From a virus (taxonomy: Duplodnaviria; Caudoviricetes), in the IMG/VR virus record IMGVR_UViG_3300021958_000045, positions 15,990-79,989 of that record: DNA of 64,000 bases; one strand, 5' to 3'. Below are positions 18,001 to 33,509 of the stretch, in pieces. Positions within the stretch are counted from its first letter, which is position 1; every line of letters starts with the position of its first letter. The notes beneath the pieces were generated by a model. That model was not told where the DNA came from. It saw nothing but the letters and a program-made list of their open reading frames with translations, and searched no databases. A program made the translations under genes and the position numbers.

Positions 18001-21000
18001 CCGCCACCAAACATACCTCCTCCAGTAGGAGTTGGAATTGCAGCGTCGGCAGCCTTGCTACCTCCTCTTTTAAACATTTTAGGTATAAATCTACCAATAA
18101 AATTTGGTACGCTAAAAGTAGAATGAGGAACGTATCCATTTGCAACTAAACCATGCTTTTGAGGATTAATCCCTTGAGATATTGAGCGCGAAATTCCTTG
18201 ACCCAAACCTCTTGGTTCGTCAATTGTATTATAAACTCCAACGCCTCCAGGATTACTTTCGTTTTTTAGTCTATTACTCTGTCCAATCCTAATCTTGTGC
18301 ATTGGTATTCCAGCTTGGCTCTCTCTTTTAATTGCTGCGCCTAAAGCATCATTTCCGCGCGAAGCTGAATTTACATTTAATGCGAAATTCGGAACGTACC
18401 CATTGGACAAGCGTTCTTTAGAAATTTCTTTTCCTTGAGAATATATAGATTCAATAATTTCAGTTTTGCTATCTTTTTCTTTATTGTCGTTTTTTAAATA
18501 TTTAAATTCTCTATCAGAAGGTTTTTGTTTTTCTGGAGTATAACCTTGAAAGTATTTTTGAATAACTTGTTTATTCTTTCTTTTCTCGATAGATTCTTTT
18601 CTTCTATTTAAAACATTTTCTTTTGTACTAGATTCATTTTCTTGAAAATTGTCTCTTAACCTATACAGAGTTGAGAAATTATCTTCGCGACCAAAAACTC
18701 TATTTTCTTGATTAGTTGAGTTAGAGCTAACTTTATTAGATTCTAAAGAAAATCCTTGAGAGAATACTTCCGAAGAAGCTTGTTGGTTATCCTTAGAGAC
18801 CATGCCTTGAGAGGAACTTTTGGAATCGGTAGACACATCCTTAGAGACCATGCCTTGAGAGGAGCTTTTGGAATCGGTAGACACATCCTTAGAGACCATG
18901 CCCTGAGAGAAGCTTTTGGAATCGGTAGACACATCCTTAGAGACCATGCCTTGAGAGAAGCTTTGAAAACCATTAATAAAGTCTGATTGTTTAGACTTAA
19001 TCGATTCTGCAAACGAGCTATTAGAGCTTGATTCTTTTTCTCCGTAACTAATATAGCTATTATTAATAGTAGACTCAATTTTCTTTTCTTTTGCTTGAGA
19101 AGAGTCTTGTCTTTTAATTACAGACTGAGTATCGGCAGATTTATTGTATGAGTTAACCGATTTAGAATCACTTGCATTATCAATTTTTTGAGAAATCAAA
19201 CCTTGAGACAAAGAAATAAATTCATCTTGCTTTGATAAATCTTTTTCTTGTTCTTGTACAATTTTTGATTCTACATTTTTATCTCTTGTTTGTAAGTTTA
19301 TTTTTTCGCTCTGCTTGCCTAACGCATAACTTTGTTGAGTTACATTTCGATCAACTAATTTTGGTATTTTTTCTTGAGATAAGTTTTTATTAATTATAAA
19401 GTTTGGAACTATACCAGAATAAAAATTTTGATTAGATTTATAATAATTTTCTAATTCTTCTCCTGACCTCATGTAGCCAGGAATTTTTTCATGAGCTTGC
19501 TGACCTTGAGCGGTTTGTTTTCCTTTAATTGCTGCGCCTCTTAAAGCATTTGCAGAAGGCATTGCTCGAAATCTATTCATAGTTGCTTGTTTATTGGTCG
19601 CCGCCTTTTGTTTGTCATACTTTTCGAAATCAGCCTTTTCTTTTGCAACCTGCCCAGATAGCAAACCTTGATAATCTAATTCTTTAAGTATTTTATCTGC
19701 CATGCTTGCTTTAATATCTCCAGACTGAGCATTAGCTTTAAAATCTCCTATAGAACCATGGCTAGAAGGCCAATTAAAAAACTTTCTCAACTGGTCTGTA
19801 GGACCTCTAACATCAAAGTCTCCTCCTCCTGCATTAACTGGAATATTACTAAAAGCAGCATTTGCTGCTGCCTCAAAAGCGTTGCCAGCCATAGCGGTCA
19901 ATGTACCTTCATTAAAATGTTTTTGTACAACTCTATCAATAATCGAAGAATCTTGCATTCTGATTTCTTGTTCGCCAAAAGCTCTAACAAAATTTTCAGA
20001 ATGAGCTTTAACTATAGTCTTAACATCTCTTTCTACAAGATCTCCAATTTTTGCTATCCTATCCGCCTCTTTTGGAATCTTGGGATTTATGCCTTTTGAA
20101 TTCCAGCCGACTAAAAATTGACTTTGGTACTTTTTTGCATAAGGGCCGCTACCTCTAACTGTAGACTGAGGAGCTCCTCCTCCTCTTTGAGGAAACAATA
20201 AAGAATAATCGTAAGTAGTAAATGGCCTCAAATCTATAACATTATCTGGGTCATCTTGATATGGTTTATTTTTTTGCCTACCCGCTTTGCCTGCTGCTGG
20301 CGCAAAATTAGGAATAATTCCATCATTAAAAATTTGCATAACCTCATGTTCGCGAGAGCTAATTTGTGATGTCTTGTTTTGATTCCATCCAATATCAGAC
20401 TGAGGAACAATAGACTGCATAGACCTACCATAAAAATCATATTCTTTTCTGCCATATTCCTTCTTATTAAATTGCATGAGGGCAGGATCATTTCTTCTTC
20501 CGCTAACATTTAAAAACAATCCTCCGACTTGCTCAGCCCATTTTTGTATTTGGCCAGAAGCCATAGCTTGTTTAAATTTTTCTACTTCAGGGTATATACC
20601 CTTCTTTGGATTAGCTCCTCGATTTAACAACTTAAGAATTTTCTTTTTATTAAATACATTTTTCTCTGAAACCTGAGTAGAAAGTATATTATCTTTTGCG
20701 GGTTTATTTAATCCCCCTCCAGCAAATTCTTTAGCTATTGTTTCTGAAGTACTGAATGATGTAGCCCCAGAAGGAGCGACATTGTCTAACTCTCCAATAT
20801 CCCTGCGCCCAGAAAGCGGCCCACTAACATGAGACTTCACAAAATTCTGAATAATATTAATTACATCTTGAGGGGTTTGCGCTCCTTTAAAGCTTGGCAT
20901 ATTTTTACCAATATTAGGTCTGTCTAGAGTTGGATTCTTTTGCCCTCTATACAAAGTTAAATTTGCATAATTTGGTACAGTTCCTGCGCTTACATTTTCC

Positions 21001-24000
21001 AACTGTCTAATTTCAAATGGGTCAACGTTATAACCATAACCTCTAGAAAGATCAGGAAAATCTACTTTTAATTTTTCTTGTATATATTTATTTAACGATC
21101 TAAATTCTCTTGAATTAAAAAACTGTCTAAAATCTTCTTTTTGCGCTTCTGTCTTTGCCCTAAATAATCCATCCGCCCGAGACTCAGATTTTAGCCTTGT
21201 GTTTATTACTCCTCCCCTAGCCCCCATTGACATTAAATTAAACTCAGACAATGCCCTACTTATTTCAGCAAATTCTTCGTTTGAGTAATCTTTAATTTTT
21301 GATTTGCGCAGTGTATTTGGAGAGTACTTTCTGAAAATTGAAAAGTTTGGAACTGCACCGTATGCTAACTGAGGCGGCGAAGGTTCTGCCATTGGCGTTA
21401 TTCCGCTAGCATATGACTTAATTAAAGTTTGAAACTCTCTTGCTCTTTCTTTTCCTACTTTGGTATGAGATGGAGGTAACACCATTCCGCCGCTAGGTTT
21501 AAAAGGTAAGCTAAATGCTTTTTGTACATCTGCTCCTGTCGAATAAAACTTTTCTTTATTATTAACAACTACTCGCTCTTTCTTTCCATTAATCTCTAGT
21601 TTTTTAACTTGAGTATCTTTATATCCAACGTTTTGACCATATAACTGAGAAGCTTGACCAGCTTCTTTCATTCGGTCAGATTCAATACTAAAGTTGGGAA
21701 TAAACCCAGTTGCTAAAGTTTCAGTTTCTTGCGAAGTAACATCTGAAATAGTTCCGCCTGCAAAACTCTTAGAGTCTGCAGAAGAACTGCTAGAACTGAC
21801 ACTTTTAGAAACCATACCTTCTGCAAAAGTCTTGGAACTCGTAGAAGACTCGTCAACAGAAGTAAAACTATTTACATCTTCAGACCTCGAAGAATCCTTA
21901 AAGTTTTCTTTATATAATTGAGTTTGATAATCAGAATCACGAACTCGGTCTTTTTGCCTTGTAAAATTTGGAACAATGCCATGGCTTGCTATTTTAACTG
22001 ATTGAGGGTCATTCTCATATTGTTTCCTGAGAGAAATTAATTCTTTTTCAGAGTAACCTTTTTTGATCAACATTTCAAGATCAGACTTTGGCCCCTTATT
22101 TTTAATATAATTTTCTAAAAATAATTTATCATGCCAGCTTCTAGATGTAATTGTTTTACTCTTAAATCCATGTTTTGCTAGCATGTTTTGAGCGGCAGAT
22201 CTCTCCCCATTAGTTGCACCTCTTTTTGCAAGCTCTCTAATTGCCTTAATGTTAACAAAGTTTGGGACTGTTTCTGGAGCAGTAACAGAGAAATTGGGTA
22301 AAACCAACTCTTCATTTGTATTGGTTCTTTTTTGTTGTTTGGCGAACATGTATTCATTAAACTCTTCTTCAAGAGAATTTAAATCTTGTGTTGATACAGT
22401 TTTTCCAGTTGGAGAAATAATTTTATCTTTTTGGACGGTGAATTTTTCCTGAAATAATCTTTGTATATCTTGATCTTCTTTTCTAATTGCCTCAGATTTA
22501 GCTTTATTAAATTCTGTACTCTTTAATTGCTCTTGCTTCTTGAAAATTTCAGATTCAATTTGTTTAACTTTATCTGGGTTTTTGCCTGGGTTCGATGGTC
22601 GACTTAATTGGAATTTTTCTTTTTGAAGTGTTGTAATTTCTTTTTGTATTTTGTCATACTCAGTTTTATTAAATTTTTGCGCAAATTCCTTTGATTCGTA
22701 TACTATGTCTCTTGAACCCTTACCTGTTGGGCCCATAAGTGGATTTGTAACCTTTGATAATTGAGATGTTAAACGATTTAAAATTTTAACGTCTTGAGGA
22801 ATATTACTACCAACTCCATATGCATTACCAACAGAGAGATTTAATTTAGTTACTTTATCAGAAATGCTTTTATAATTTTTATTATGTATATTGTCTTTAA
22901 TAAATTTATTAAATGCGGGCGAAGCGAAATTAGGTATATGCCCATCTGACATAATAGCTAGACCTTTCATCTCTGCAAACTCTTGATATAATTTACTTAT
23001 TTGTTCTTCTGAAATTGACTCTGAACCACGAGCTTTCTTTACAAATTTTAATATATCTTCAGCACTGTCTACGTTTTTTGTAGTAAATTTTTCTGCGGAT
23101 TTTGCGAGGGCTTTTTGGGTATCTGTAGAAGTAAAAATTGTTTTTGAAACATTATCAAAGCTATCAGGATTGTATAGTCTTTTTAGGTCCGCTCCAGTTT
23201 TACCCATTGGGAAGGACTGATAATCTTCTGCCTTAAGAGATTGCACGTCTTTTATATTTACCTGACTAGGAACCTCTTCCCTCTTATTCTTCCAAGAGGT
23301 TAGTCGATCATAATTTCTATTGCCCGAAGAATTTTGGGCGACCTGAGTAGACTTAACTACGGCACCCATGATTTCAGGATAACCTTTTTGTGCAGCAAAT
23401 TGGGCAAACTCTTGAAGCTTAACATCGGAATCAAAAGAAATCTTATCTTTAGTTAGTTTATTTTGAGGTTTATGCCCAGAGATGAAATGCATTTTAGGGT
23501 TCTTACCCCACTGCTTAAACTTTGCATCAGGAAACTGCATCTTTGCAAGTTCCAAATCTTTTTCCATAACATACTCTTTACCACTCTTGGTTTGTTTAAT
23601 ATTAAACATTGATGGAATTCTTGCAAAATTAGGAATTAATCCTTGAGAATAATTTTCTAACTGAGGAACTTCTCCAGAAGCTCTTCTCCTCAACATCTTA
23701 CCTCTTGGCGTAAATTTATTTATTCTTTTTAAAATATCTTCCCGATGCTTCTTAAAGTATTCAATTCCTTCTTTTTTTGTTTTAAATTCTCCGCTAATTT
23801 GAGCTTCTTCTAAATGCTTTAATACAGAACCCATTTGAGGCCCTGGCTCTACTAATTTTTCTTGTATTAAATCTCGACCTTGTACAATTGGCTTAGGTGG
23901 CTCTTTGTATATTCCGCTTTCTTTTGCAATTGAGCTCATTCTACTAATATTCTTTTCATCGACTTGAGTAAATTTTCTTGCAGTTACATCGTCAGATAAA

Positions 24001-27000
24001 TTTTTGCCCATGTCAGATTCAAGCAATATTTGAAACTTACTTAAGTCTCCTACATCCTTAGTTAACCTATTAATAGATTTCTGCGTCAAATTCTGAGGAA
24101 AATTTGAGTGAAACATATGTCTTTCAACAAAAGGCGTTAAGTCTTTAGATAATTTACTCGCTTCTCCTTGAGACATAATTCTACCCAAGAAACTTTTCAT
24201 TGGCGCGACTCCAGCCTTTTCGTGACCGTAAGAAGTTATCGAGCCATCTTTGTTTATTTGTGTGTTTGTAACTTTGCCAAAATCATGCGTTAAAGCAGAA
24301 AACATCAATTTGCTTCTTTCTTTTTCTGGAAGCATTTGCCAATTTTTATTATTGGCCATTGCATTAGTTACAAGTTTTGTGTGATTAAATACATCTCCTT
24401 CGGGGTGATGCTTGGGAGACTGGGGAACTCCCTGCAATTTATCAATTTCAGGAAAATGCTTTATCCATCCAGACTCTTTTAGAAATTGCAAACCTTTTTC
24501 TGGATTGGTAGATTTAGATGCCCATTTCATCCATTCTTCTCTAACTCTTTCTTTTGGAAGATCTTTAAATTGTCCAACCATTTCTCGAGAATAGTTGATC
24601 AATTCTTTATCTGCAGAAAGATTAAACCTTCCAGCCATCTGCATAGATCTTAATACCCTCAAAGGGTCTTCTTTAAATCTAGGAGACGTAGGCTTCATGA
24701 TGCCGTCTTGTAAATCCTGCCTCCCTCCCAAGGGGTCAATAAATTTCTTTGTGAGAGGGTCGTAAGAAATAGAATTGATTGTTAAATCTCTTCTTTGTGC
24801 AGCTTCTTTGCGCCCCATATTAGGATCTACTTCAACCTCAAAACCTCTATGTCCAGCACCTACTTTCTTTTCTCTTCTTGGCATCGAGAACTCAAAATCT
24901 TGCCCCCCGCTTTTAGCTTTGAATACTCCAAAGTCTTTGCCAACTAAGCCTTCTTTAGTTAAAGATGGAGACAATATTTTTTGCAATTTTTCTTGTTCTA
25001 AACCAAAAACCTCAACATCCCAATCTTTAGGAAATTTGCCCATTAAAAAGTCTCGAGGAGCTCCGCCTACAATCTGAGCACTACCTCCAGCAGCTTGAAT
25101 TTCTTTTGATACTTTTTCAAGATATCTGGGGACGGGCATAGTTTCTGCCGCAAAGTTAGGGACAAGGTCTCTTTGTGTATTTTCTGGTTGAGCAAAGTTG
25201 GGAACCAAACCTTCAGCATTTCCACTACCTCTTCCAGAATGCTGGCCACTAAATTGATAATGAGTTCCAGTTATATTTTCATTTCTAAGGTTACGAATAG
25301 CTTCTATATTTTCAATTGCGTCATCGATCAGATCGTACTTACCCCCTTGCTTTTTCCAAATTCTCTCTAATAGAATCGCTTTCTTTTCTGCAGGCTTTAA
25401 ATTCCTATAACCAGGAACCCTTCCTCCTTTTGCTTTAATTATTTTTCCAGAACCATCGCTAGCAATTTTAATATTATTAAACATATCTGCGGTGGTCATA
25501 ATCTTTTCAGGATTAATTCCCCATTTTTTTAATTTTTCTTCAATAAATGGCACAGACTGTTTTGCTCGAGCAGTTAAGACAGTGACCGCTTGACCCTGAA
25601 GTTCTTTTGCTAACGGGGTAGGTTTAGCCAATCCTGCAGATTCAGCTTGAAACAAATCTTTAGACTTTACATTCTTAGAATAAGTGCCTAGTGTTTCGTC
25701 AAAATCATAAAATTTTCTAAAGCCTGCGTTTCTTTTGAGGGCAAAGTTGGGAACGAGTCCTTCAGATAATTTTGATACAGTTCTCTCTAATGTGCCAGCA
25801 TCTTTTGTAAAATTAGGAACAGCTCCTTCTGAATATTTTTTTAGAGATTTGCCTGGAGCTTGTTTTTTCTGACTCTCTTGAAGCTTGACAATCTTTTGCC
25901 AAATTTGGTTTGCTTCGCCATTTAACTGGCTAATCTTTGGATCTATTTCAGCTCTGGGCCTCCCAGATTGAGACAGTTGCTTTGCTTGTCCTAGTTTGCC
26001 CTGCCACATCTTTAAAAGCCTTGATCGATCTGACTGCATATCAACAGGCTTAATAAAATTAGGCACTGCTTCTTGAGAATTTAAATAACTAGCGTAATTG
26101 GGAACAACTCCTTCTGAATATTTCTTAGCAGACTTGCTAGATATTTGTTTCTTTTGTTTCTCTTGGAGGCCGACAATCCTTTGCCAGATTTGATTTGCTT
26201 CGCCATTTAGTTGACTAATCTTGGGATCTATTTCGGCTCTAGGTTTTCCAGATTGAGACAGTTGCTTTGCTTGTTCCAGTTTACCTTGCCACATCTTTAA
26301 AAGCCTTGGTCGATCAGACTGCATGTCTACAGGTTTAATAAAATTAGGAACTACTCCCTCAGAATAAAAGCCTGCCTTTTCATCTCTATTAAAATTCTTA
26401 TCCCCCTTTTTTAATATTTTTGTATATGCATCCATGGCAAAATATTCGCCAGATGCAGTTCCACTTAAAATGGAATTTTTTGTATTAAACCCTAAATTTG
26501 CTTCTGACCAACTATTAAATGACTCTATACCATTTTCTTTAACCCATTTACTAACTTTAGTTTTTAAAGATTTAATATTTTTAAATTCGATTTCATCATT
26601 TCCAATCTGAAAAGTTCCCGAGGTTGACATTCCTGGCTTGATTCTTTGTTTTAATTGTGGGAATGCATTGATTATGGTTTCCCAAGGAGTTTTGCCTGAA
26701 GAAGCACGAATTTGGTCAAAGGTACTGTGAATCTCTTTATTTTTCCATCTTCTTTTTCCTGTAAAGCCTGCGATTTTATCAAAATTTCTATTAGCTCCCC
26801 CCTTCATAGAAGGATCGTTTACATCTGCTCCTTTAGCTCTTTCTGAATATAAAATGTCAGTCTTGTTTTCGTAATCGTACTCTCCCTTGCCATAAGTAAA
26901 TCTAGTTGTTGTTCCAGTTTTTTTATCAGTTACTTGTATAATGGGTAATTGACCATTCCATTCATTAGTAGTCTTCATACCGTCGAACCCTTTAATATCT

Positions 27001-29786
27001 TTTTGGGCTCTTGCAAGATTTTTCTCTCTAATTTTTTTAAGTAATTCTGGCTTGCCCCAAGTAGACACAAAATTTGGTATACTTTTAGCAGCATCTGGAA
27101 TTATTCCTTGTGCAGCCCTCTTTTTACCACCAGCAGCAATAGCTTTACCTCGTCCAGCTACTGTTCCAGCGGCAGCCTTCTTTTGCTTTTCAAAATCTTT
27201 ATATTGTTTTAATTTTTGATAACCTCCCCTAGAATCAATAATTTTTTTAATTCCACTGCCAATATTTTTCTTGCTTGATGAAACTTTAGCATCTACATTT
27301 TTGCCTTTTCTTGAATCTAAATTAAATGCAGTTGTTAAGTTTTTTTGAAATTCAGGACCAGGAAAATCCCATCCAGCGGTTCCAGGATCGTTTTTTACAA
27401 CTGAATTTTTAATATAATTTAAAGTTGCTTCAAATACCCTTCCTGTGAATTGAGGGCCTGCAGACTTATCCAAGTAATCGCTTAATGGGCCAGAACCTTT
27501 AACCTTTCCTCTTGGCATAATATCTCTAGCTACATCTCCTATGGCAGAAGTCATATGCTTATCAACAATACTATGGAAGCTTGAGCCTTGTGATTGAGCC
27601 AGTCTACCGATAGTGAAGTTTCGTGCTTCAAATTTTGTGCCTTTAAAAGCTGGAGGAACTGCGCCATCAAACACTGAAGATGCTGCTACAGTTTGATTTT
27701 TTCCTGTTTCTGATTTGCCCGCTTCTGCTGTTATAATACCCTGTCCAGCTGCATTTAATTTAATTACCTGATTGTTGGTTGCTTTAAAATTTGGTACATA
27801 ACCAGTAGAGTAAAAGCTTTTGGTTCCATAGTCAGCGGCAGAATAAAATTTTTCAATACCATTGTCATAATTGAATCTTTGCATCATATCTTGATTTAAT
27901 ATTGCAGATGCGCCTGAACCCATAAAGTTTTCAACAATTACTTCATCTGTATTTGCAACGATATCTTGCTTTTGAGTTTTTGTTTTTTGAAAGTTTTTAA
28001 TTAATACAGGGGAAGCAGATTTAGAAGCTCCCCCAACTCTACGATTTATGTCTCTTTGTTCTGCAGCAAAAGAAGGAATAAATTTTGAATCAGTATTTGC
28101 AGGAACATAACCTTTTGACATGCCAAGATCTTTGCGTCCCGCTGCAGCTCTAGGACCTCGGCCATAAGGAACTACAGTGCCTTGATTACTTACTGCAACG
28201 TTGGCTAACGTAGACGACGAAGCGATTTTTTTTAAGAGCGCATCTTGCGCTATTCGTTCGGTCGTTTGTTTTTTTAAGACGCTGAGTATTGCCTGCTCTT
28301 TTGCCACTTGGCTTGTAGAGTCGCTTAGAATTTTCTGTCGAACCCCCTCTTCGCTCATTAAAATTTGAAGAATTGCAGCTTGCAAACCCTCTTGACGTTT
28401 AGTTTCACTGTTGATTGAAAAGATTGACTTCAATGCGCTCGCACCTTGTTGAGCGACGAATGCAAATAATTTAATAAATGCCCCACCAATTAAAACCATG
28501 CCAGGACCACTGATGAAACTACCAATACCTTTTAATAAAGTCTTGCCAATATTAGTGCCACTATCTTCTCCTACTAAATTATTTATTCCGTCAGCCAGAG
28601 TCTTAACTGTTTCTAATACTTTTTCAATGCCAGGACCCAAAGTCATTTCTCCAAAATTGGCAGCCAACTCTTTTATAGATAATCCTGTTTGACTAAGTAG
28701 AGCAGACATAGTTTTATTCAACTCTTCATTTCTTTGGGTGGCTTCATTAGTACTATTGTTTGCAGTTTTAAGAGCTTGATCGTATATACTAAATTCGCTA
28801 TTTAAGTCTTTAATTAAAGCTTTAAGGTTATTAACCTGAAACACTCCAGCAATTAATTCATCAGTTGCGGCTTTTTGAGCATCGCTTAAAGTATCGTAAC
28901 CTTTTGCATAATCTTGAAGCACTGCCATGCCAGAACGAAATGCCCCAGTTGCATCTTGCGTTGCAACACCGATTTCTTCTAAAGCTTCTCTTACGCTAGA
29001 TCTCTGCAATCTTGTAAATATACTTTTAAATGAGTTTCCTATTACTGCTCCACCTCTAGCTGTTTGCTGTTGAACACTAGTAACAGCAGCAAGAAGTTCA
29101 TTAAATTGCACTTTTGCAGATTGTGCAGTTGCTCCAGCTCTTGCTAAACCATCTGCTAAATCTTTAGAAGATACTGCAAAGGCTGCATCAACATTAGCCA
29201 ATCTATTGACAATATCTGAAGAATTTATAGCTGCATCATTAAAACCATTTATGGCTGCCGTAAGAGCATTTACAGCCTCCACAGAATCCATGCCAGACAA
29301 TCTTGTTAACGTCATTGCATCAGCAATACGCTGAAGGGTTTCGTCAGCACTTAAACCTTGTCTAGCAAACTCTGTTGCGGCAGCGGCTATATCTTGAAAA
29401 GATGATGCAGTATCTCTTGCAACATCAAATAAAGCTCCTCCAAAATTTTGTAAAGCAGACTCAGACATATTCATAATAACATTAACGTCTTTTAATGCTT
29501 TTTGAACTTCTATGGCTGATTGAGCCATTGCTTTTAATGCATCAGAAACTCCATTAATAACGGAAACTGCAGCACCAAACGCAAATACACGAGCGACAGC
29601 AGCGTCCATGGATTTTTCAAATTCTCCCATTTGGCCAGTAATTCTACCAAGAGGCTGGACGAGTCCTTTTTCATTCAATTGCAATTTAATGGGCTGAATT
29701 TTCTTTTCGCCCATTTTGGCTTGATTAGCAATATCTTGATCAAGACCTACTGCTTTAACTCTTACTCTAATATTTTCTTGTGCCAT
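1..29786 (-). CDS. Giant tape measure protein / multi-enzyme polyprotein, at least 9,928 aa, 3' end outside the window
   Basis: ATG at 29786 (MAQENIRVRVKAVG...). The frame was spot-translated open at many points down to position 3 (...KKDGRDWMS). No minus-strand ORF of this frame is in the track, consistent with no stop before the edge. It lies directly downstream of the tail tube and chaperone genes. Confidence 0.9.
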   Translation of the reverse strand, partial: MAQENIRVRVKAVGLDQDIANQAKMGEKKIQPIKLQLNEKGLVQPLGRITGQMGEFEKSMDAAVARVFAFGAAVSVINGVSDALKAMAQSAIEVQKALKDVNVIMNMSESALQNFGGALFDVARDTASSFQDIAAAATEFARQGLSADETLQRIADAMTLTRLSGMDSVEAVNALTAAINGFNDAAINSSDIVNRLANVDAAFAVSSKDLADGLARAGATAQSAKVQFNELLAAVTSVQQQTARGGAVIGNSFKSIFTRLQRSSVREALEEIGVATQDATGAFRSGMAVLQDYAKGYDTLSDAQKAATDELIAGVFQVNNLKALIKDLNSEFSIYDQALKTANNSTNEATQRNEELNKTMSALLSQTGLSIKELAANFGEMTLGPGIEKVLETVKTLADGINNLVGEDSGTNIGKTLLKGIGSFISGPGMVLIGGAFIKLFAFVAQQGASALKSIFSINSETKRQEGLQAAILQILMSEEGVRQKILSDSTSQVAKEQAILSVLKKQTTERIAQDALLKKIASSSTLANVAVSNQGTVVPYGRGPRAAAGRKDLGMSKGYVPANTDSKFIPSFAAEQRDINRRVGGASKSASPVLIKNFQKTKTQKQDIVANTDEVIVENFMGSGASAILNQDMMQRFNYDNGIEKFYSAADYGTKSFYSTGYVPNFKATNNQVIKLNAAGQGIITAEAGKSETGKNQTVAASSVFDGAVPPAFKGTKFEARNFTIGRLAQSQGSSFHSIVDKHMTSAIGDVARDIMPRGKVKGSGPLSDYLDKSAGPQFTGRVFEATLNYIKNSVVKNDPGTAGWDFPGPEFQKNLTTAFNLDSRKGKNVDAKVSSSKKNIGSGIKKIIDSRGGYQKLKQYKDFEKQKKAAAGTVAGRGKAIAAGGKKRAAQGIIPDAAKSIPNFVSTWGKPELLKKIREKNLARAQKDIKGFDGMKTTNEWNGQLPIIQVTDKKTGTTTRFTYGKGEYDYENKTDILYSERAKGADVNDPSMKGGANRNFDKIAGFTGKRRWKNKEIHSTFDQIRASSGKTPWETIINAFPQLKQRIKPGMSTSGTFQIGNDEIEFKNIKSLKTKVSKWVKENGIESFNSWSEANLGFNTKNSILSGTASGEYFAMDAYTKILKKGDKNFNRDEKAGFYSEGVVPNFIKPVDMQSDRPRLLKMWQGKLEQAKQLSQSGKPRAEIDPKISQLNGEANQIWQRIVGLQEKQKKQISSKSAKKYSEGVVPNYASYLNSQEAVPNFIKPVDMQSDRSRLLKMWQGKLGQAKQLSQSGRPRAEIDPKISQLNGEANQIWQKIVKLQESQKKQAPGKSLKKYSEGAVPNFTKDAGTLERTVSKLSEGLVPNFALKRNAGFRKFYDFDETLGTYSKNVKSKDLFQAESAGLAKPTPLAKELQGQAVTVLTARAKQSVPFIEEKLKKWGINPEKIMTTADMFNNIKIASDGSGKIIKAKGGRVPGYRNLKPAEKKAILLERIWKKQGGKYDLIDDAIENIEAIRNLRNENITGTHYQFSGQHSGRGSGNAEGLVPNFAQPENTQRDLVPNFAAETMPVPRYLEKVSKEIQAAGGSAQIVGGAPRDFLMGKFPKDWDVEVFGLEQEKLQKILSPSLTKEGLVGKDFGVFKAKSGGQDFEFSMPRREKKVGAGHRGFEVEVDPNMGRKEAAQRRDLTINSISYDPLTKKFIDPLGGRQDLQDGIMKPTSPRFKEDPLRVLRSMQMAGRFNLSADKELINYSREMVGQFKDLPKERVREEWMKWASKSTNPEKGLQFLKESGWIKHFPEIDKLQGVPQSPKHHPEGDVFNHTKLVTNAMANNKNWQMLPEKERSKLMFSALTHDFGKVTNTQINKDGSITSYGHEKAGVAPMKSFLGRIMSQGEASKLSKDLTPFVERHMFHSNFPQNLTQKSINRLTKDVGDLSKFQILLESDMGKNLSDDVTARKFTQVDEKNISRMSSIAKESGIYKEPPKPIVQGRDLIQEKLVEPGPQMGSVLKHLEEAQISGEFKTKKEGIEYFKKHREDILKRINKFTPRGKMLRRRASGEVPQLENYSQGLIPNFARIPSMFNIKQTKSGKEYVMEKDLELAKMQFPDAKFKQWGKNPKMHFISGHKPQNKLTKDKISFDSDVKLQEFAQFAAQKGYPEIMGAVVKSTQVAQNSSGNRNYDRLTSWKNKREEVPSQVNIKDVQSLKAEDYQSFPMGKTGADLKRLYNPDSFDNVSKTIFTSTDTQKALAKSAEKFTTKNVDSAEDILKFVKKARGSESISEEQISKLYQEFAEMKGLAIMSDGHIPNFASPAFNKFIKDNIHNKNYKSISDKVTKLNLSVGNAYGVGSNIPQDVKILNRLTSQLSKVTNPLMGPTGKGSRDIVYESKEFAQKFNKTEYDKIQKEITTLQKEKFQLSRPSNPGKNPDKVKQIESEIFKKQEQLKSTEFNKAKSEAIRKEDQDIQRLFQEKFTVQKDKIISPTGKTVSTQDLNSLEEEFNEYMFAKQQKRTNTNEELVLPNFSVTAPETVPNFVNIKAIRELAKRGATNGERSAAQNMLAKHGFKSKTITSRSWHDKLFLENYIKNKGPKSDLEMLIKKGYSEKELISLRKQYENDPQSVKIASHGIVPNFTRQKDRVRDSDYQTQLYKENFKDSSRSEDVNSFTSVDESSTSSKTFAEGMVSKSVSSSSSSADSKSFAGGTISDVTSQETETLATGFIPNFSIESDRMKEAGQASQLYGQNVGYKDTQVKKLEINGKKERVVVNNKEKFYSTGADVQKAFSLPFKPSGGMVLPPSHTKVGKERAREFQTLIKSYASGITPMAEPSPPQLAYGAVPNFSIFRKYSPNTLRKSKIKDYSNEEFAEISRALSEFNLMSMGARGGVINTRLKSESRADGLFRAKTEAQKEDFRQFFNSREFRSLNKYIQEKLKVDFPDLSRGYGYNVDPFEIRQLENVSAGTVPNYANLTLYRGQKNPTLDRPNIGKNMPSFKGAQTPQDVINIIQNFVKSHVSGPLSGRRDIGELDNVAPSGATSFSTSETIAKEFAGGGLNKPAKDNILSTQVSEKNVFNKKKILKLLNRGANPKKGIYPEVEKFKQAMASGQIQKWAEQVGGLFLNVSGRRNDPALMQFNKKEYGRKEYDFYGRSMQSIVPQSDIGWNQNKTSQISSREHEVMQIFNDGIIPNFAPAAGKAGRQKNKPYQDDPDNVIDLRPFTTYDYSLLFPQRGGGAPQSTVRGSGPYAKKYQSQFLVGWNSKGINPKIPKEADRIAKIGDLVERDVKTIVKAHSENFVRAFGEQEIRMQDSSIIDRVVQKHFNEGTLTAMAGNAFEAAANAAFSNIPVNAGGGDFDVRGPTDQLRKFFNWPSSHGSIGDFKANAQSGDIKASMADKILKELDYQGLLSGQVAKEKADFEKYDKQKAATNKQATMNRFRAMPSANALRGAAIKGKQTAQGQQAHEKIPGYMRSGEELENYYKSNQNFYSGIVPNFIINKNLSQEKIPKLVDRNVTQQSYALGKQSEKINLQTRDKNVESKIVQEQEKDLSKQDEFISLSQGLISQKIDNASDSKSVNSYNKSADTQSVIKRQDSSQAKEKKIESTINNSYISYGEKESSSNSSFAESIKSKQSDFINGFQSFSQGMVSKDVSTDSKSFSQGMVSKDVSTDSKSSSQGMVSKDVSTDSKSSSQGMVSKDNQQASSEVFSQGFSLESNKVSSNSTNQENRVFGREDNFSTLYRLRDNFQENESSTKENVLNRRKESIEKRKNKQVIQKYFQGYTPEKQKPSDREFKYLKNDNKEKDSKTEIIESIYSQGKEISKERLSNGYVPNFALNVNSASRGNDALGAAIKRESQAGIPMHKIRIGQSNRLKNESNPGGVGVYNTIDEPRGLGQGISRSISQGINPQKHGLVANGYVPHSTFSVPNFIGRFIPKMFKRGGSKAADAAIPTPTGGGMFGGGGGMMNTIFMGQMMFGGIEGQTGTAGGYAADAAGDALQIAAITSMITDKKKWVALAASVGALNGVLDQYSKSLKVQGDQIERNIQINGKAIESATQVVSAQSRLNSAIEGGDPENITKAIKSLQKQIESFPSGSSAIDDLRSALVTANGDVQKMSTALEKFSASALKVNQLGQLTIKAQAANENREGVLPFGFGPTQLPDFVPFFGGEKGELKDEARGEIRNIGMQSVQGLELAEEQVTSLSKKLSKINFEEFSAEDIRSTIKEFSSTLDEETRTLFDQIVDNIPDEGMVDFTVGIKEQLKLRKESIEAGKAVGKTSSALGNLKSTIVNLSTAVSRSISELNSNITKAFDIAEKQFNSELSIMTGMNYMTPNEARSAQEEFSVTRINAETAAGTEFEVSKFVNQLMKDTKMEDFEGEDGSVFSGKLADVLNKMYLKSSELEQGDGRFMADDIVSAIERIDFDERTQEEQELIDSVRQLNEKANQQIALLKLGNEIAAREDLLQARKNLESTQLDVTAREGEIMEQFAFGQSFEPETQLDLDVQARATQDMVGLMEGLFGKSPELNDMRQQANMQNAIGNVNRILMMLGVETETGFDAKADANIDMGDVVNSMKKALVEQDLPDGTQKMVSYMIKQLTAQQGALASTPSDRSELTRKTLQSTAEALNIDLEELGLDPRTMGFNDLTSIADQLGDNGVEIRLLSSIDEGIQTLSKTLQPEQGISAEEIVKAIRNIKVADTEKVEQRTKASKQQDEARQKIQNIAIDGANVNIGGSTKINTSGNITIHGGANSTEPPQPAPSRGGVPNFARNSSTRDRKKSPIRGLKESLNEDKLKESRGFEQFAGKTFTGGRALQVANYYPGAIDSIYREVEALEKKGITNALNNVQLTIPASSNSLANFQYQGAVVTNTVDEGNVTPRSYLNKIENVHDLSPRDSEFSMTGMIDNSSSQTQAISTVRRSSQNASANQIANNYSIANQKSSWKSARAQSSIGDTYNAGAALRVANYYPEAKETIQKEIKTLKDRGVKNPINEIQFTVPDQELSEIGPKSIIDSVITNRVDDGSVAESNYLTKIQNTHKTGLRIQKQKEFISPSAEQRAENLVKNEKILRNNLHQNIISKRKDSQKTKEQEVYSESVWGETTYAPKQTMAQKLAGKTFTGGAALRVAKYWPGASESISREITALENKGVMDPISNIQLTVPGGKSQYFSSYDGPVVTNKIDEGGVAPTNYINKIRGVHKLGPQEGAFASHGTLDEDVDDKTKFMRGYLERNPYVPNFAAPQKGARRIINTARALGEDMDIWDLEPESIKPSAVANWNSSGAALLKQVHGLQGNSQGGLSKLQRAFIEEMRKEENQQIFSKIGVENFDFDQAKFMDPEIGEPQIFRPMVIEYMGGNKDGQVVPVEEATKAKPRDFQSGKYIISQIDSTNPDIDELELFTGEENRAIRQAVANQDADSEETMRRQRAAKATQRAVERGGPKARSDAGPNVRATKTLGDSAPKVGTLTEAAKQNMKGLESHIIPKDLADDIRSQEAITARAAENATEQASKEIGKSAEGGFVRQAGTWLKRQLQTLRILTGRSTEQKQGINPVKEEEILSQIENEGVRTYSGDTPTNPLETNEDVKSILAEKVDGEVDTGADRVHKQKENYLQRERSVTEKIQRAIQANRIRKNRQKKQRQRQKELEQKARRTLEEQKAQQRQEEIERVRKIQEAEIDKGLGRTRTSMAIGEGSEFKDVLTYNNPELRELSSWDKIKKTALKFVGRYKGSEIEEVERQNNIVRTQQMQDLASGENIASEETTFSKLQKLSNERSVTTSTSATSESLFQRPASTPRNPWTTSVVSHRSQKSPVVEMAEELIEQRAMNISGSVSPIKDAPEESKKQSILRQVIGGSTSPEGVDGLFSLRAETIDPPLLERIRRAKSQLFPEHGNVSFRQAGIVPSKSPSTVLSDFDILASDGTLIGTMDSTGIIHPPTVETKPVIYDANGRAVGAQKVAGVQTAQAQLQLAPANTGELAVSASQADVLNQAQVSKISNKLKSGSDLSVEEMNVLQQWANNNPDLVNSIETGQENKTLLLENADVKSRASRLTDKQFEISKVTSAAKAENQIDELINNPEFVDRATRTMPGDPIHLQRMFDNIDSRKSVPLPPTETALDKVKTNSNINRRANELQKQLVLREIRQKAPLELQKRLRLPANFNEADLNKKFLSEKQRLQQLIDNPNIPSNKRGIIEEDLRILTRNKNEHLNALDPKLMERQDLFINRQFKELIADAGLSVFTGGGAEGVSKLDVTNQAMAKKLGPAAFDLDGDFVKLREEISKVLFLDPENTAGFDKNLAESLVDRELRVIGLDSQGKGFGLGDRMRENLINLDRFVGMGMGEDFLRQAKTQNLHKSDINVARLVSFMDLMDPAGNKLDGKAIENLKKGGIDKIFQKIQKGELFSQTAIRGKTVPMIPKDPEAVLNNLKNADLASQVNASRILENEGKLSSLAASKGNGIVNPASLELAAQELEAGRQPLSTSDVGEDGIDLTKTRMTAEELASLQSTMDSLDGDLDQKAPDQRLSTLSQSLDPENTIETSRNIIAEKQQQLINDRLVEKAEFDRLTSLGNAATQEDLQRMSELLQIDNLRVSQGRSSNFDRENVTRANNQLASFNQQSVRTASNEVGVKLTKREDSPVRSRRSEEAIEELDALEEAKADPVEQAAAVRETGAETEAKVREVASVDDNIVQQTIEEVEEVDDNWKKSKEEYLADPEKAATSERLLEKGKAHKRLIDYLVETKGWKNTMQAGKGIWNGVSSIVPIAGSAKDWTAEKWGTVRERISAWRAEQAKKHPEGIAKQMAEENHRAEQSRKAEAKLAMEMNIGSKPIAFDTSESLTQTFKQTEKFNRSQSGWTEYEDKVLDQLTGRMRVEQNGKDIITYDPKLSPYVGSKDIKEAHALRRSLNPKDHMMKRITAGENIKFLKAGEVMKKVNQGTTAVKGALLDKQISAPKSLTSSNVFQRRLIESETSGKHINVPEEFSKTITRKGNDYRALDLDKVAEGLRESTRVVDYQEPDGSIKTYSVDEFEKKRSEAFSNIQKRAELSSRSISETSTSELGDFKKESISEKIRMEQEKFMRGVLPGDIDGNPGRYTLTKEGSLLRAKEINRQANAVNLQRAGQAFDSAMNYGGGPLRGATVGTLLPAAGILAFQTETGMSVLDSAANMIGSEPKHFVLEKQVRNKDNVSVGTGNYLSTAGTDLIQQQKTLLNKKKQAGLLDAPEEASWHDKALTKIGLKQMAESKVEGDKNATELARKNIAAKIARRNLEGLAGGEEGIPGLSEYTMASQDNLEDARAQPMFFESREAATQYAHENNLSGYSAKGLGDNSEERAFLRSYGKGFAQGKVGEGNDLAESVGLSQFTGSEVAGVLSANLADAAIVGTRARMGTSTAAAMTKGAALKTAARRFAGVTAAEFFVARGEKARMDYSGMEGHLRAGGNYALGFGTGLAFESKNPLLGFAVGAPLGAAAYTARVGLGDYLNFDPDEINNTKYAMSSEELLERQKEIINLAKSKAESARQLLDKYYLGSFVNKGKRLGVDYSSKEAFHTFYDQAERDRYYQLAIEQGEIMRSAYRLAEQMDTRILANRDLYQAGTLQKNEKPNEKLVKHNYTADAVSKILSDTVTLFDPNLVTDLKEQTKMEKEGFTQKQILEKLNSKDFTSTKINEKGEEYVYQPNTEELVNLRQQKSRTYLKGLERVHDFNARQGLLRSSTDYAGASSLEETMEIGKMPEKEFLKEKISWDPDSNLGKIKDRRAQIFYKDGKKITDYDEWMKEMDRGSLDYGKLTYPYEMAQVLGIDTVDHRDTNRRIPMLKVQARIKEQFQNFRTTGRIEKKPAQAVDKILQGMGIASQGGDNSKETKINNFILGKQDDGWNVQYDEATKSTIMKHEKHGLVSFPGMGDVNNERSFERLYEKHMQDLTKSRYEEPMQSYYKAQKNFASGEQTPATRKAFEQSQAERVKNTRGISDADPSREYGRPGYGEENYNKSKFKTFEEFDEKIPKEQRIYLSAMSALLKRGEEAQYQSKDMQGQDVEYYEALADLQADEVMHAQFNKALIERNMGVQASKTQITEAGYSMQKGLGYGTQVDAINKDFESAEVGSANILKLGSLNPEDINGYVSRFQGGLESKREEDIKLRKRVSEREAEMSVIDKKLTSNISQKERDHLTAERGEIVKSLSETKLKRANLKPFLTAPDKVAQGMQLRKNSQTQFESTINRLSKQLGIDEEISLDRKVGSLYNHFSKNPLYTGKSNIEDSKKSAPGDVSKNVLEQKDRWMLREEAIQMMVARNRRLRLEKKKLEKASPGSQIIQQKTFNDDDEFELRRTMNIFADGRSSATKKSTSKQFQKDLDEWHSSRDTKSSYASIIRDQETYSELLKKKGLYLRTGEEDSIAGQAILEGKIGNQSYRGTYFRDLFDSVMTRGSNQGESFNGLLDQKKQAMQDWELVKGLPEMLPYTATMESAYRKGMGLDTKNDDLLGAIPYEEIQKSKQKLNNQLMTAGYSMNWWRDKDVSTRTEDWNKLLIENFRKPVKEDLLKSGGARLAGGIIDEADGTVRAQKDFANVLDEDGNIIQSADERAADALVQNIKKDFKLFDVNQDGIITPDEINLLDDRFDPAKFNPEEGIGYNESARKIAGTRRGTLTPEIFRALTTKFDGSGLGDGPDGGLSRAEIFQNDGSGNDKNKSIVQDRVRDFLKNKYVKQVSPYGESLKEGLNSYFYGGTEGGVRAVEIWKELAMLDKNSIPEASREDFSKAQSEAMKLIQNVGLHRSIISKGQKLDQRSQDRYGDLFKQKMDLQLSPEDIKNYRHLETELGSDKWKGKEHLPAYREMQETMNAYRERRDKVSFINNEFNQGSTKEGMLAGRAFSLPNFLINQGLINEGDSKAGEPWAPAAIGDDWQNYSDRYFRGISSVAQAMDSSTAEKVAKDLGINIKTGGQGGWAGEPDTIFETEKDPQDITNQITGYDEAALDRQFGAQFKEVDTARRLSEEKEFINKYSNQNAMSVMANEMGNLSSNASAKVAGITGRGGDDNTNLTNPFGKSKEIAASWRERETSIQEKHKEGLEKMVSNAKERKISRESFTDVRDPLKFIQQYSKDYNERKGFLWNKVDNAKGAYDQKVATGADAETKALALQRYKEAIQEELFHRQMAYPDSTMNDVLNRKNYLDIQNTDWKLGPAYQDWYDSYAGEKIMLKTGEGVDIPVSDKQDAAKKLLQARGDEMRAVMMQRGWMTEDGEYAKRIGDNAITPEKINELLVDTHPGNKYVYKAGEKIDRLQNIWSEKFGGKFTKGALSLFGNESAKFVLNATGAPGDLTDTSSASEQGGGFVVSRERRDAGLKAQQALQPEVVGRFNILDPNEKLMMAISKSAQNGFKGGGPEDFTSIYQGMSLSGRESFKRKYKEAIEQKVPPSIVSQLNNYISNVDKNDLYATAKGEGVPDYLKRKIDSRTPLTRGERDELREYKKREMVARRIVGEKRRSSGISRAAGQMMDRLGTSEPLARFISSAGSSAVLQYRFMNETDGNIKKLEDLDIQGQGATKINGSYIRTEKDRKRKLESLARKRIAHFNNFKKIISNHPEAKHNILFDSVNPRGFRANPEMASISENIIRRPVISELSDEEKKAALRLNIDVADKLVRTDSNGVPIIQEESRKTMSRLEGTGPFDVIAKTNKLEGLEETFDLDLVQQAAANASQDIRTMQKQADKVREQKSKISYDEAYDLNKDGRLSPEELSRKKMLEDFAKQNQAKASKAKVNNSALGFQPKKSKPFASSRTAASSPGKANLHQAYSEVKQSVLASYKKPVTADQVGIANLRTGTGRYEKRIVNAQEKIFSHGGVDFVAPPKNSSVSRKYAEDVQDEFGIDPYDKKIQNAAQGFVPNRGQSSRAEKNPIPGINKLNVNIDSLSKTLSKTKFDSPDVDLAEAWTKSDTGKQDGRQWEELSQSLRSMYTKNYEDNKMSKAWSQSSTGKKDGRDWMS
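738..779 (-). other. EF-hand loop in the giant ORF
   Basis: AYDLNKDGRLSPEE, canonical D-x-N-x-D-G-x-x-x-x-x-E. Confidence 0.6.
3903..4148 (-). other. EF-hand pair in the giant ORF
   Basis: FKLFDVNQDGIITPDE (canonical 12-residue loop, 4101-4136) and a degenerate partner DGPDGGLSRAE (3906-3938). Confidence 0.6.
14290..15480 (-). repeat. Three diverged copies of a ~90-aa domain in the giant ORF
   Basis: GxALxVAxY[YW]PxA..I.[RK]E[IV]..L...G...I...Q[LF]T[IV]P...V[VI]TN.[IV]D[ED]G at ~15210-15475, ~14780-15040 and ~14290-14550. Confidence 0.85.
18789..18965. repeat. 48-bp tandem repeat, ~3.7 copies, encoding a 16-aa Ser-rich unit (xSQGMVSKDVSTDSKS)
   Basis: Unit atccttagagaccatgccttgagaggaacttttggaatcggtagacac starts at 18789, 18837, 18885 and 18933. 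Confidence 0.97.
19560..20303 (-). other. PD-(D/E)xK nuclease-like cassette 2 in the giant ORF
   Basis: AGNAFEAA...GDFDV...GDFKAN, same order and spacing as cassette 1. Confidence 0.5.
20322..20963 (-). other. ADP-ribosyltransferase (R-S-E clade) cassette in the giant ORF
   Basis: LTLYRGQ (R 20946-48), TSFSTSETIAKEFA (STS 20745-53), SREHEV (E-x-E 20343-51). Confidence 0.8.
21981..22256 (-). other. DUF2786-like helical hairpin cassette in the giant ORF
   Basis: IKAIRELAKRGATNGERSAAQNMLAKHG resembles the DUF2786 pattern. Confidence 0.35.
23733..25139 (-). other. cca: Class II tRNA nucleotidyltransferase (CCA-adding enzyme) with HD domain, in frame inside the giant ORF
   Basis: IVGGAPRDFLMGKFPKDWDV, RREKKVGAGHRGF, RRDLTINS, EDPLRVLR, ERVREEW; HD part PQSPKHHPEGDVFNHT...THDFGK...GHE...ERH...ESD; C-terminal GRDLI..PGPQMG. 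Confidence 0.93.
25263..25727 (-). other. HAD-superfamily phosphatase cassette in the giant ORF
   Basis: Motif I FYDFDETL, motif II VLTAR, candidate motif III K (EKKAILL), motif IV LIDDAIEN. Confidence 0.75.
25810..26350 (-). repeat. Direct duplication of a ~250 bp linker-bounded cassette (offset 285 bp)
   Basis: Two near-identical copies of PNFIKPVDMQSDRxRLLKMWQGKLxQAKQLSQSGxPRAEIDPKISQLNGEANQIWQ...KKYSEGxVPN. Confidence 0.95.
27100..27785 (-). other. PD-(D/E)xK nuclease-like cassette 1 in the giant ORF
   Basis: GRVFEA...WDFP...VDAKVS. Confidence 0.5.
28300..29786 (-). other. Tape measure core domain (TP901/PhageMin_Tail-like) of the giant ORF
   Basis: Ala/Gln/Leu-rich helical sequence with typical motifs: EFARQGLS, LTRLSGMD, LANVDAAFAVSSKDLADGLARAG, TARGGAVIGNSFKSIFTRL. 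Confidence 0.85.
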
Positions 29787-32641: not shown

Positions 32642-33493
32642 TCAATAAGAAAGACCATTTAATATTTTTTCTAAATGATTTATATTTGTAATATAAGATT
32701 TATAAGAAAACGTTGCTTCAAGAAATTCATGTATCGAACCGCTTTGACTATAGTCCATAAGTTTTGCATCTTTCATAAAAAAACTTCGAATAGCATCCCC
32801 ACTTTCACAATCTTGAAAAATTAAAGATAAATCTTGTATTTCTGGCGCGCAAATAAAATCAAATAAATTTTTAGACTCATAATCGTCTACATGAAGAACG
32901 AATTGACAATCCACCTGTATTGGAAATTCAGTTCTAAAATCTATAGGCTCTAATGATCCTAATTTAAAAATAGGTTCTCTATCAACGTTAATTTGAAAAT
33001 TAAAAGATTGAATTCTATTTGTTGAGTGACCAGCAACATTCAACAATATACTTCTTGGAGAAGCAATCATAATAGATGAATCTCTTTCTGGGGTTTGGCT
33101 TAAAAATATATCTGTATCTCCTCCAGAATTACCATAACATAATAAAGAAAAATTTAAACTAGGAATACCTCCTATAGCACATTCGCAGCTATAATTTGTA
33201 ATTTGTGCTCGAGAAAAAATAAAATTTTTTCCATTTGTATATAGATTTTCTCCATAGATATCTGTACTTTTAAATAATTCAACCAATGGATCTGTCGAAG
33301 AAACCATGAATCTCTCTATATCACAAGTAGCAGTCATTGGTTGTTCTACCACGCCTCCCAAAAAACCTCCATCTCTGCCTACTGCATTTACATAAGTTTC
33401 TTCTGCGGACCATGCCACTTGGCAGCTTTGAACCCCTCTTATTCTTTCTTTATTTATATATAAATCTTGAGTATCATGCTTATGCCCTCTCAT
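32642..33493 (-). CDS. Tail tube-like paralogue (likely start MRGHK at 33493; track gives 33508)
   Basis: RIRGVQSCQV...INAVG-like and RIQSFNFQINVDREPIFKLGSLEP match both halves of the tube protein. Confidence 0.65.
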   Translation of the reverse strand: MRGHKHDTQDLYINKERIRGVQSCQVAWSAEETYVNAVGRDGGFLGGVVEQPMTATCDIERFMVSSTDPLVELFKSTDIYGENLYTNGKNFIFSRAQITNYSCECAIGGIPSLNFSLLCYGNSGGDTDIFLSQTPERDSSIMIASPRSILLNVAGHSTNRIQSFNFQINVDREPIFKLGSLEPIDFRTEFPIQVDCQFVLHVDDYESKNLFDFICAPEIQDLSLIFQDCESGDAIRSFFMKDAKLMDYSQSGSIHEFLEATFSYKSYITNINHLEKILNGLSY

Positions 33494-33497
33494 AAAC

Positions 33498-33509
33498 AAT
33501 ATATACACA
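33498..33509 (-). promoter_or_regulatory. Candidate late promoter (GTGTA motif)
   Basis: TGTGTATATATTGTTT-ATG, directly after the terminator U-tract. Confidence 0.5.

Follow-up and report, generated by a model that had tools for sequence, protein, structure and literature searches.

A complete CCA-adding enzyme appears to be built into the giant tape measure protein of an uncultivated phage

The tape measure protein (TMP) of an uncultivated phage contains a complete and apparently competent class II CCA-adding enzyme with an HD domain of the E. coli Cca type. The stretch of DNA analysed (hereafter, the window) comprises 64,000 nucleotides (nt), positions 15,990 to 79,989, of the 79,989-bp IMG/VR record IMGVR_UViG_3300021958_000045, for which CheckV estimates a completeness of 57%. 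The enzyme cassette occupies positions 23733..25139 of the minus strand, corresponding to residues 1550–2018 of a predicted virion protein of 10,562 amino acids (aa), and was assigned from profile hidden Markov models, alignment and a structural model. The best reading of this cassette and its upstream neighbour would be a virion-delivered kit for the repair of tRNA 3' ends, a proposal to which we give about even credence.

The segment translates into 469 aa with no stop codon. Pfam models matched PF01743 (6.8e-20, 72 bits against a cut-off of 23), PF13735 (9.2e-08) and PF12627 (1.2e-04). The first of these corresponds to the nucleotidyltransferase head with motifs A–C and the flexible loop (24696..25073, minus strand), and PF13735 (tRNA_NucTran2_2) to the C-terminal tail domain (23760..23894, minus strand). 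The HD phosphohydrolase domain (23970..24422, minus strand) was delimited by alignment with that of E. coli Cca, the Pfam HD model being sub-threshold at 17.3 bits versus 22. The top NCBIfam match is PRK10885, 'multifunctional CCA addition/repair protein' (1e-52, 179 bits), and because this score compares with an equivalog cut-off of 451 the cassette is, by profile score, a member of the family and not an equivalog of the E. coli enzyme. Stand-alone enzymes of about 468 aa align with it from end to end, with 95–100% coverage and 40–46% identity. The first residue of the cassette is a methionine (ATG at window position 25139) that aligns with the start methionine of stand-alone homologues (MPVP... 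versus MPLP..., MRLP... and MNLP...), which points to capture of a whole gene.

Residue conservation was assessed in an alignment of the cassette with E. coli Cca and seven homologues, and cassette numbering is used here. Within motif A (GG..RD), G25, G26, R29 and D30 are invariant together with D41, the second carboxylate of the DxD pair, while D39 is at least 90% conserved. Invariance extends to the RRD.T.N segment (116–122; R116, R117 and D118), to D135, G139 and D142 of motif C, to E157, D158 and R161 of EDPLRVLR (157–164), and to E197, R198 and E202 of motif E (ER...E, 197–202). The HD ligands H245, H253, H285-D286, H306, H341 and a C-terminal Asp are likewise invariant, E. coli Cca included. 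The flexible loop between motifs A and B, which is needed for the switch to A addition, spans residues 86–110 and equals the E. coli Cca loop in length.

An AlphaFold2 model of the cassette, calculated from 69 sequences, is of high confidence (predicted local distance difference test score, pLDDT, 94.2; predicted template modelling score, pTM, 0.91), including the tail domain to its end. The top fold matches in the PDB (codes 6qxn, 9kma, 3wfp, 1miv and 5hc9) are class II CCA-adding or A-adding enzymes, with E-values of 1e-15 to 1e-12, and a sequence search of the PDB likewise ranks such enzymes best; structures of E. coli poly(A) polymerase (PAP) are also among the fold matches. The model, together with the PF12627 and PF13735 matches, backs a seahorse-type architecture with neck, body and tail. 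Over its length, the cassette has 30% identity to E. coli Cca, with which it shares the order of head, neck, HD body and tail, motifs A–E and the HD ligands; it differs in its setting within a virion protein, in the complete absence of cysteine, and in scoring under the equivalog cut-offs. CCA profile models outscore the PcnB model on the cassette (179 and 135 bits versus 99). In five cellular genomes the family is represented by the sole PF01743 gene, as would suit a housekeeping CCA enzyme and not a poly(A) polymerase or one member of a split CC/A pair.

The gene that carries the cassette covers window positions 1..29786 on the minus strand, with its ATG at 29786, and runs 1,902 nt past the left edge of the window. 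In the full record the open reading frame (ORF) encodes 10,562 aa with neither a stop codon nor a single cysteine; to our knowledge, this is twice the length of the longest known TMPs. Residues 122–307 (28866..29423, minus strand) match the TMP signature domain PF10145, PhageMin_Tail (1.4e-28, 100.6 bits versus a cut-off of 33.2), and the first 660 residues match TMPs annotated in cultured Bacillus siphoviruses, at approximately 27% identity. Upstream lie a terL gene (43517–45382) and a weak match to a tail tube or minor tail protein (32642–33508); Pfam and PHROGs searches of nine upstream structural ORFs returned nothing beyond these two. On the basis of the signature domain, the similarity to annotated TMPs and the upstream structural genes, the ORF is a genuine TMP. 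When the remainder of the protein was searched against Pfam and PHROGs in chunks and as single cassettes, no match above threshold was obtained except for the TMP and CCA domains, and most of the other cassettes are without a recognisable family. Pfam matches to the hallmark domains of polyvalent proteins (MuF, zincin-like metallopeptidase, ART-PolyVal and LPD) are absent from all 10,562 residues, and a pattern search of the TMP found no kinase, ligase or P-loop.

The cassettes of the TMP are separated by a peptide, G-x-[VI]-P-N-[FY], that occurs 22–26 times against 0.8 occurrences expected from composition. Upstream of the CCA cassette, the linker is doubled (EGLVPNF, a 7-residue spacer, then RDLVPNF; residues 1525–1545, 25152..25214, minus strand), with core positions at 1528–1531 and 1542–1545. 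The downstream linker QGLIPNF (residues 2048–2054, core 2051–2054; 23625..23645, minus strand) follows a 29-residue basic spacer. The linkers lie almost entirely within residues ~570–5200 and are followed by ~3,600 residues without any. Their codons vary at synonymous sites between copies, indicating that selection acts on the peptide, and a role for the linker DNA as a recombination repeat was rejected on account of these differences. The conserved peptide is possibly a processing or handling signal. On an ENA contig (ERZ26869290:ctg356049; L003, positions 1345–10409), a related cargo is divided between two ORFs, one of 1,368 aa and, after it, one of 1,608 aa. The 1,608-aa ORF opens with a 27-residue leader ending in GIVPNF, and shortly before the 1,368-aa ORF an in-frame stop is followed by 'SWIPNF'. 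Such leaders on separate ORFs suggest that the motif may serve as a handling or leader signal and not only as a domain separator. An earlier note on this DNA, prepared from the letters and their ORFs, had described a CCA-adding enzyme with every class II motif and a full HD metal site at residues ~1550–2020, flanked by PNF linkers inside a virion structural protein; its coordinates, motifs and residue range agree with the translation and the alignment to E. coli Cca, and the metal site, the linkers and the TMP setting are as it had them.

Directly upstream of the CCA cassette and ending at the double linker is a second putative enzyme, a HAD-fold phosphatase cassette (residues 1349–1525; 25212..25742, minus strand), which was recognised by the motifs DFDET, TAR, KK and DD and by modelling, and which has no Pfam match. 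An exhaustive search yielded 13 representatives of this cassette, mostly within V-P-N-F-linked proteins of 900–3,800 aa, and six of them begin with a TMP N-terminus like the present one. Twelve of the 13 (family P0186–P0197) lack cysteine, the exception being a short fragment, P0192, with one. The four motifs are conserved across 12 sequences (D13-x-D15, T57, K120/K121 and D140-D141). Against the predicted structure (pLDDT 88.9), the 3'-phosphatases of T4 Pnkp and Pnkp1 rank first, with VIA-align Z-scores of 11.9 (root-mean-square deviation 3.0 Å over 128 residues) and 11.8, respectively, followed by 9.7 for the next, unrelated HAD family. The cassette is thus predicted to be a capless DxDxT phosphatase closest to the polynucleotide 3'-phosphatases, about 2 Z units above generic HAD enzymes. 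The same order of HAD followed by CCA recurs in P0195 (46% identity), a protein of 3,779 aa or more whose gene is truncated at the contig end. Judged from motifs and models, the pair looks like a heal-and-rebuild module for 3' ends and not for anticodon-loop breaks; the lack of a kinase, ligase or P-loop in the TMP points the same way.

A second IMG/VR contig (3300023109_000014; 82,461 bp) encodes a TMP that is collinear with the present one, is 10,437 aa long and contains 23 linkers and two cysteines. The two TMPs are 59% identical overall (the TMP average being given as 59–72%). When the first 5,600 residues were compared in 100-residue blocks, the CCA cassette was the best-conserved stretch, at 96–98% identity. 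With a nonsynonymous divergence (dN) of 0.021 and a synonymous divergence (dS) of 0.51, dN/dS is 0.042 and the cassette is under strong purifying selection. A low dS, 0.41, was also observed for the cassette at residues 905–1147 (26358–27068), compared with 1.2–2.4 (about 1.6) for flanking cassettes, which suggests recent cassette-wise exchange between the two lineages. The CCA domain lies between the same G-x-[VI]-P-N-F linkers in three further metagenomic proteins: P0123 (a Tara Oceans fragment, 60% identity), P0124 (58%) and P0195. Assembly chimerism at the cassette borders, which the earlier note had named as a possible flaw, would mean that a cellular or phage cca gene had been joined to the TMP gene, as might happen in a metagenomic contig such as this one. 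It is effectively excluded on comparative grounds: the sister phage, diverged as it is, has the same junctions, the three further proteins come from other samples, the composition shows no break, and the cassette is free of cysteine like its host protein and unlike every cellular homologue.

In a FastTree phylogeny of 152 CCA-HD domains, the linker-flanked, TMP-type domains form one clade with full support, with sisters on phage-like contigs and then Verrucomicrobiota. Named cellular relatives are mostly Verrucomicrobiota (Opitutales), all at 36–40% identity, and the closest stand-alone relatives (P0003, L037 and L044) are on phage-like contigs. The phylogeny that had been proposed as a means of finding the donor lineage therefore places the TMP clade, but the donor is not nameable from it, the nearest neighbours being phage-like. 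Stand-alone phage relatives were found on 185 viral contigs in IMG/VR and in 467 GenBank phage records. Where the latter match best, the annotation is that of a tRNA nucleotidyltransferase with a gene of its own, not of a TMP. CCA-HD domains are fused elsewhere to MuF (P0129), to MuF and a 2H phosphoesterase (L039), to an Acb1-like 2H domain and PBECR2 (P0147), to ART-PolyVal (P0130), and to DUF4314, ART-PolyVal, WGR and a ligase (P0127). In a further giant phage protein, 3,247 aa or longer (L048, positions 1–9741, and L049), the domain is combined with an HU-like DNA-binding domain and DUF1653. The tree requires at least five independent fusions of CCA-HD into other large phage proteins. Per CCA-HD domain, the number of cysteines is zero in the TMP clade, 1.3 on average in other long proteins and 5.5 in the median cellular copy, with none of 78 cellular copies cysteine-free, these counts not being phylogenetically independent. 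Proteins that pass through an oxidising compartment, or that have to refold once transit is over, would be expected to lose cysteine, and the loss in the fused copies is taken as no more than suggestive of such a passage. The L048/L049 protein has 41 cysteines and is a separate fusion lineage without cysteine depletion.

A sequence of events can be envisaged for tRNA 3'-end repair by delivery. A phage would have captured a whole CCA-HD gene and inserted it between G-x-[VI]-P-N-F linkers in the cargo region of its TMP, directly after the Pnkp-like HAD cassette. If carried in the virion, the TMP would exit the tail ahead of the DNA into the cell envelope or cytoplasm, where the cargo cassettes may refold, probably once released at the linkers. 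The HAD and HD domains could then strip a 3'-phosphate or 2',3'-cyclic phosphate, perhaps also a 3'-pyrophosphate, from damaged tRNA acceptor ends, and the transferase could rebuild C-C-A, such that translation would withstand host systems that shorten or block the 3' tails of tRNAs at a time when the phage genes are still silent. Attacks of this kind are documented, and so targets for such repair exist: toxSAS enzymes pyrophosphorylate the tRNA CCA end (10.1101/2024.07.05.602228, PMC11782079) and Cas12a3 cleaves tRNA tails (PMC12851939). The independent fusions of CCA-HD (at least five by the tree) to carriers already regarded as injected (MuF in P0129 and L039, ART-PolyVal in P0127 and P0130, and Acb1/2H with PBECR in P0147) point to delivery. 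A pre-emptive, injected counter-defence, as suggested in the earlier note, thus draws circumstantial support from the Pnkp-like neighbour, the repeated MuF and ART-PolyVal fusions and the purge of cysteine.

Several points weigh against delivered repair. The lumen of a siphovirus tail tube, at ~4 nm, should be too narrow for a folded domain of 52 kDa and all the more so for three of them. The cassettes would need to pass through it unfolded, be housed at another place in the virion or be taken out prior to assembly. Host cells normally own a Cca, so the benefit from a few injected molecules is questionable. No protease was recognised, and a pattern search for HExxH in the TMP was negative. With regard to the chemistry, CCA-, A- and poly(A)-adding enzymes are not reliably separable by sequence, the PRK10885 score lies well under its equivalog cut-off, and the preference of the HAD model for Pnkp is moderate (Foldseek E-value 7e-4, template modelling score 0.46–0.56).

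The main rival, which we take seriously while judging it unlikely, is expression of a polyprotein without delivery. On this view the TMP reading frame would be a vehicle for producing many accessory enzymes late in infection. Cleavage at the V-P-N-F linkers would free the cassettes inside the producing cell, and the tail would incorporate the helical C-terminal half alone, with the CCA and HAD pair keeping tRNAs at work in the same round of infection, for instance if late proteins set off abortive-infection toxins. The near confinement of the linkers to residues 570–5200, ahead of the long linker-free stretch, speaks for such a scheme, as does the expectation that folded cargo should not fit the tail tube. 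Moreover, the separate ORFs with short V-P-N-F leaders on the ENA contig imply that the cargo need not be physically in the TMP, and phages commonly have stand-alone CCA genes, whose products act once expressed. However, the cargo array has the conserved N-terminal domain of the TMP on one side and the C-terminal body on the other, and its excision would split the ruler. The absence of cysteine from the entire protein, with loss in fused copies only, is easier to account for if the protein travels outside the cytoplasm, and the independent MuF and ART-PolyVal fusions favour delivery.

Less probable again is a cassette of the same fold with another substrate, which might tail or mark host mRNA or rRNA for decay, act on phage transcripts or tRNA-like structures, or mature phage tRNAs, with an HD domain that may degrade signalling nucleotides. 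The same motifs are present in the poly(A) polymerases of class II; PcnB models match the cassette at 3e-28, its fold matches include E. coli PAP, the score is under the CCA equivalog cut-offs, and nucleotide-signal degradation has been proposed for several phosphoesterase domains in the literature on polyvalent proteins. Against this, the CCA models score higher than PcnB, the HD domain and C-terminal tail follow the Cca architecture over the full length, and cellular members are the only PF01743 gene in their genomes. No tRNA gene was found in either 80-kb phage record, at a completeness of about 60% for each, and the partner HAD resembles RNA-end phosphatases. That the domain is decayed or co-opted as mere bulk in an exceptionally long tail ruler is highly improbable. 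TMP length sets tail length, so that any insertion lengthens the protein, and most of the other cassettes have no recognisable family; yet every catalytic residue has been retained, the segment is the best conserved of the protein (dN/dS 0.04), and an enzyme of globular fold is poorly suited to serve as part of a ruler. Delivered tRNA 3'-end repair accordingly remains the reading that we prefer.

Stand-alone tRNA nucleotidyltransferases of Vibrio, Sinorhizobium, Erwinia and jumbo phages are also phage-borne CCA enzymes. They are encoded by separate genes and act only after expression, in contrast to the present cassette, which is built into a structural protein and is at most 46% identical to any stand-alone copy. 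A review of jumbo phages lists only stand-alone CCA enzymes and reads them as RNA repair (PMC7824862). The earlier note knew of no described fusion of a CCA enzyme with a TMP, and none was found in the papers or GenBank phage records searched, a scope that leaves most subscription journals outside. Its implied singularity has to be tempered, given that stand-alone phage CCA enzymes are common and already interpreted as RNA repair, and that CCA-HD domains occur in other large phage proteins in public metagenomes.

The closest conceptual parallel is with the polyvalent proteins (Iyer et al. 2017, PMC5512222), giant virion-linked polypeptides with many unrelated enzymatic domains that are presumed to be injected with the DNA. 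The present protein similarly brings several disparate activities, predicted from its TMP domain, HAD phosphatase and CCA-HD, into one virion-linked polypeptide. It differs in its TMP chassis, in its V-P-N-F separators, in the lack of a visible zincin peptidase and in being about five times the typical polyvalent length; the hallmarks MuF, ART-PolyVal and PBECR accompany CCA-HD in other metagenomic proteins and not in the present TMP. The main text of the polyvalent-protein paper mentions neither CCA-adding domains nor tape measure carriers (PMC5512222). What is new here is the chassis, the linker and the cargo within the theme of polyvalent, injected effectors.

T4 Pnkp and the bacterial Pnkp1/Rnl/Hen1 systems share with the TMP a capless DxDxT HAD 3'-phosphatase beside an enzyme that rebuilds RNA ends. 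Here the kinase, ligase and methyltransferase are lacking and rebuilding would be by template-independent CCA addition, for which the predicted substrate is the acceptor 3' end. Enzymes embedded in TMPs are themselves known, peptidoglycan hydrolase motifs in mycobacteriophage and staphylococcal TMPs being used at entry. Those known examples act on the cell wall, whereas the present cargo would act on cytoplasmic RNA.

A bolder extension, towards which we lean a little less than we doubt it, is that giant V-P-N-F-linked TMPs constitute an unrecognised delivery chassis loading dozens of enzymes into the virion, and that the HAD and CCA/HD pair would be the first RNA-repair machinery delivered as protein at infection. 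It would pre-empt immunity by trimming, phosphorylation or other blocking of tRNA acceptor ends (toxSAS/CapRel, Cas12a3 and HEPN-type RNases), and the tactic would have arisen on at least five occasions, each on a different injected carrier. tRNA is increasingly recognised as a target of antiphage immunity, and the known phage answers, encoded tRNAs and repair enzymes, need expression first. A ready-made repair enzyme arriving with the genome would, if the proposal is true, be a different kind of counter-defence, for which this cassette is a concrete and testable candidate, and the polyvalent-protein idea would be extended to the TMP. That CCA-HD recurs on MuF, ART-PolyVal and TMP carriers suggests that tRNA 3' ends are under strong and widespread selection early in infection. 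A CCA-adding enzyme free of cysteine might, in addition, be useful as a reagent.

Other regions of the TMP have features of their own. Residues 5,200–8,820 and beyond (3–14198) include the ~3,600 residues that have neither linker nor Pfam match and may represent the true length-determining body; if helical, this stretch would alone predict a tail of ~0.5 micrometre. Near the C-terminus, at residues 9,880–10,140 (~14,700–16,200 of the full record, G000:C1, and partly to the left of the window), there are W-x-x-S-x-T-G-K-Q-D-G-R-x-W repeats with weak EF-hand-like matches (PF13202 at 7.6e-4), which may be calcium-binding loops. Two near-copies of a ~90-residue unit (IKPVDMQSDR.RLLKMWQGKL...) make up residues 1148–1346 (25749–26342), the fastest-evolving segment relative to the sister phage, with a dN/dS of 0.15. 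Among the relatives, a phage CCA-HD gene (L071, positions 4441–7245) is split by an intein with a LAGLIDADG homing endonuclease, located inside the transferase head domain.

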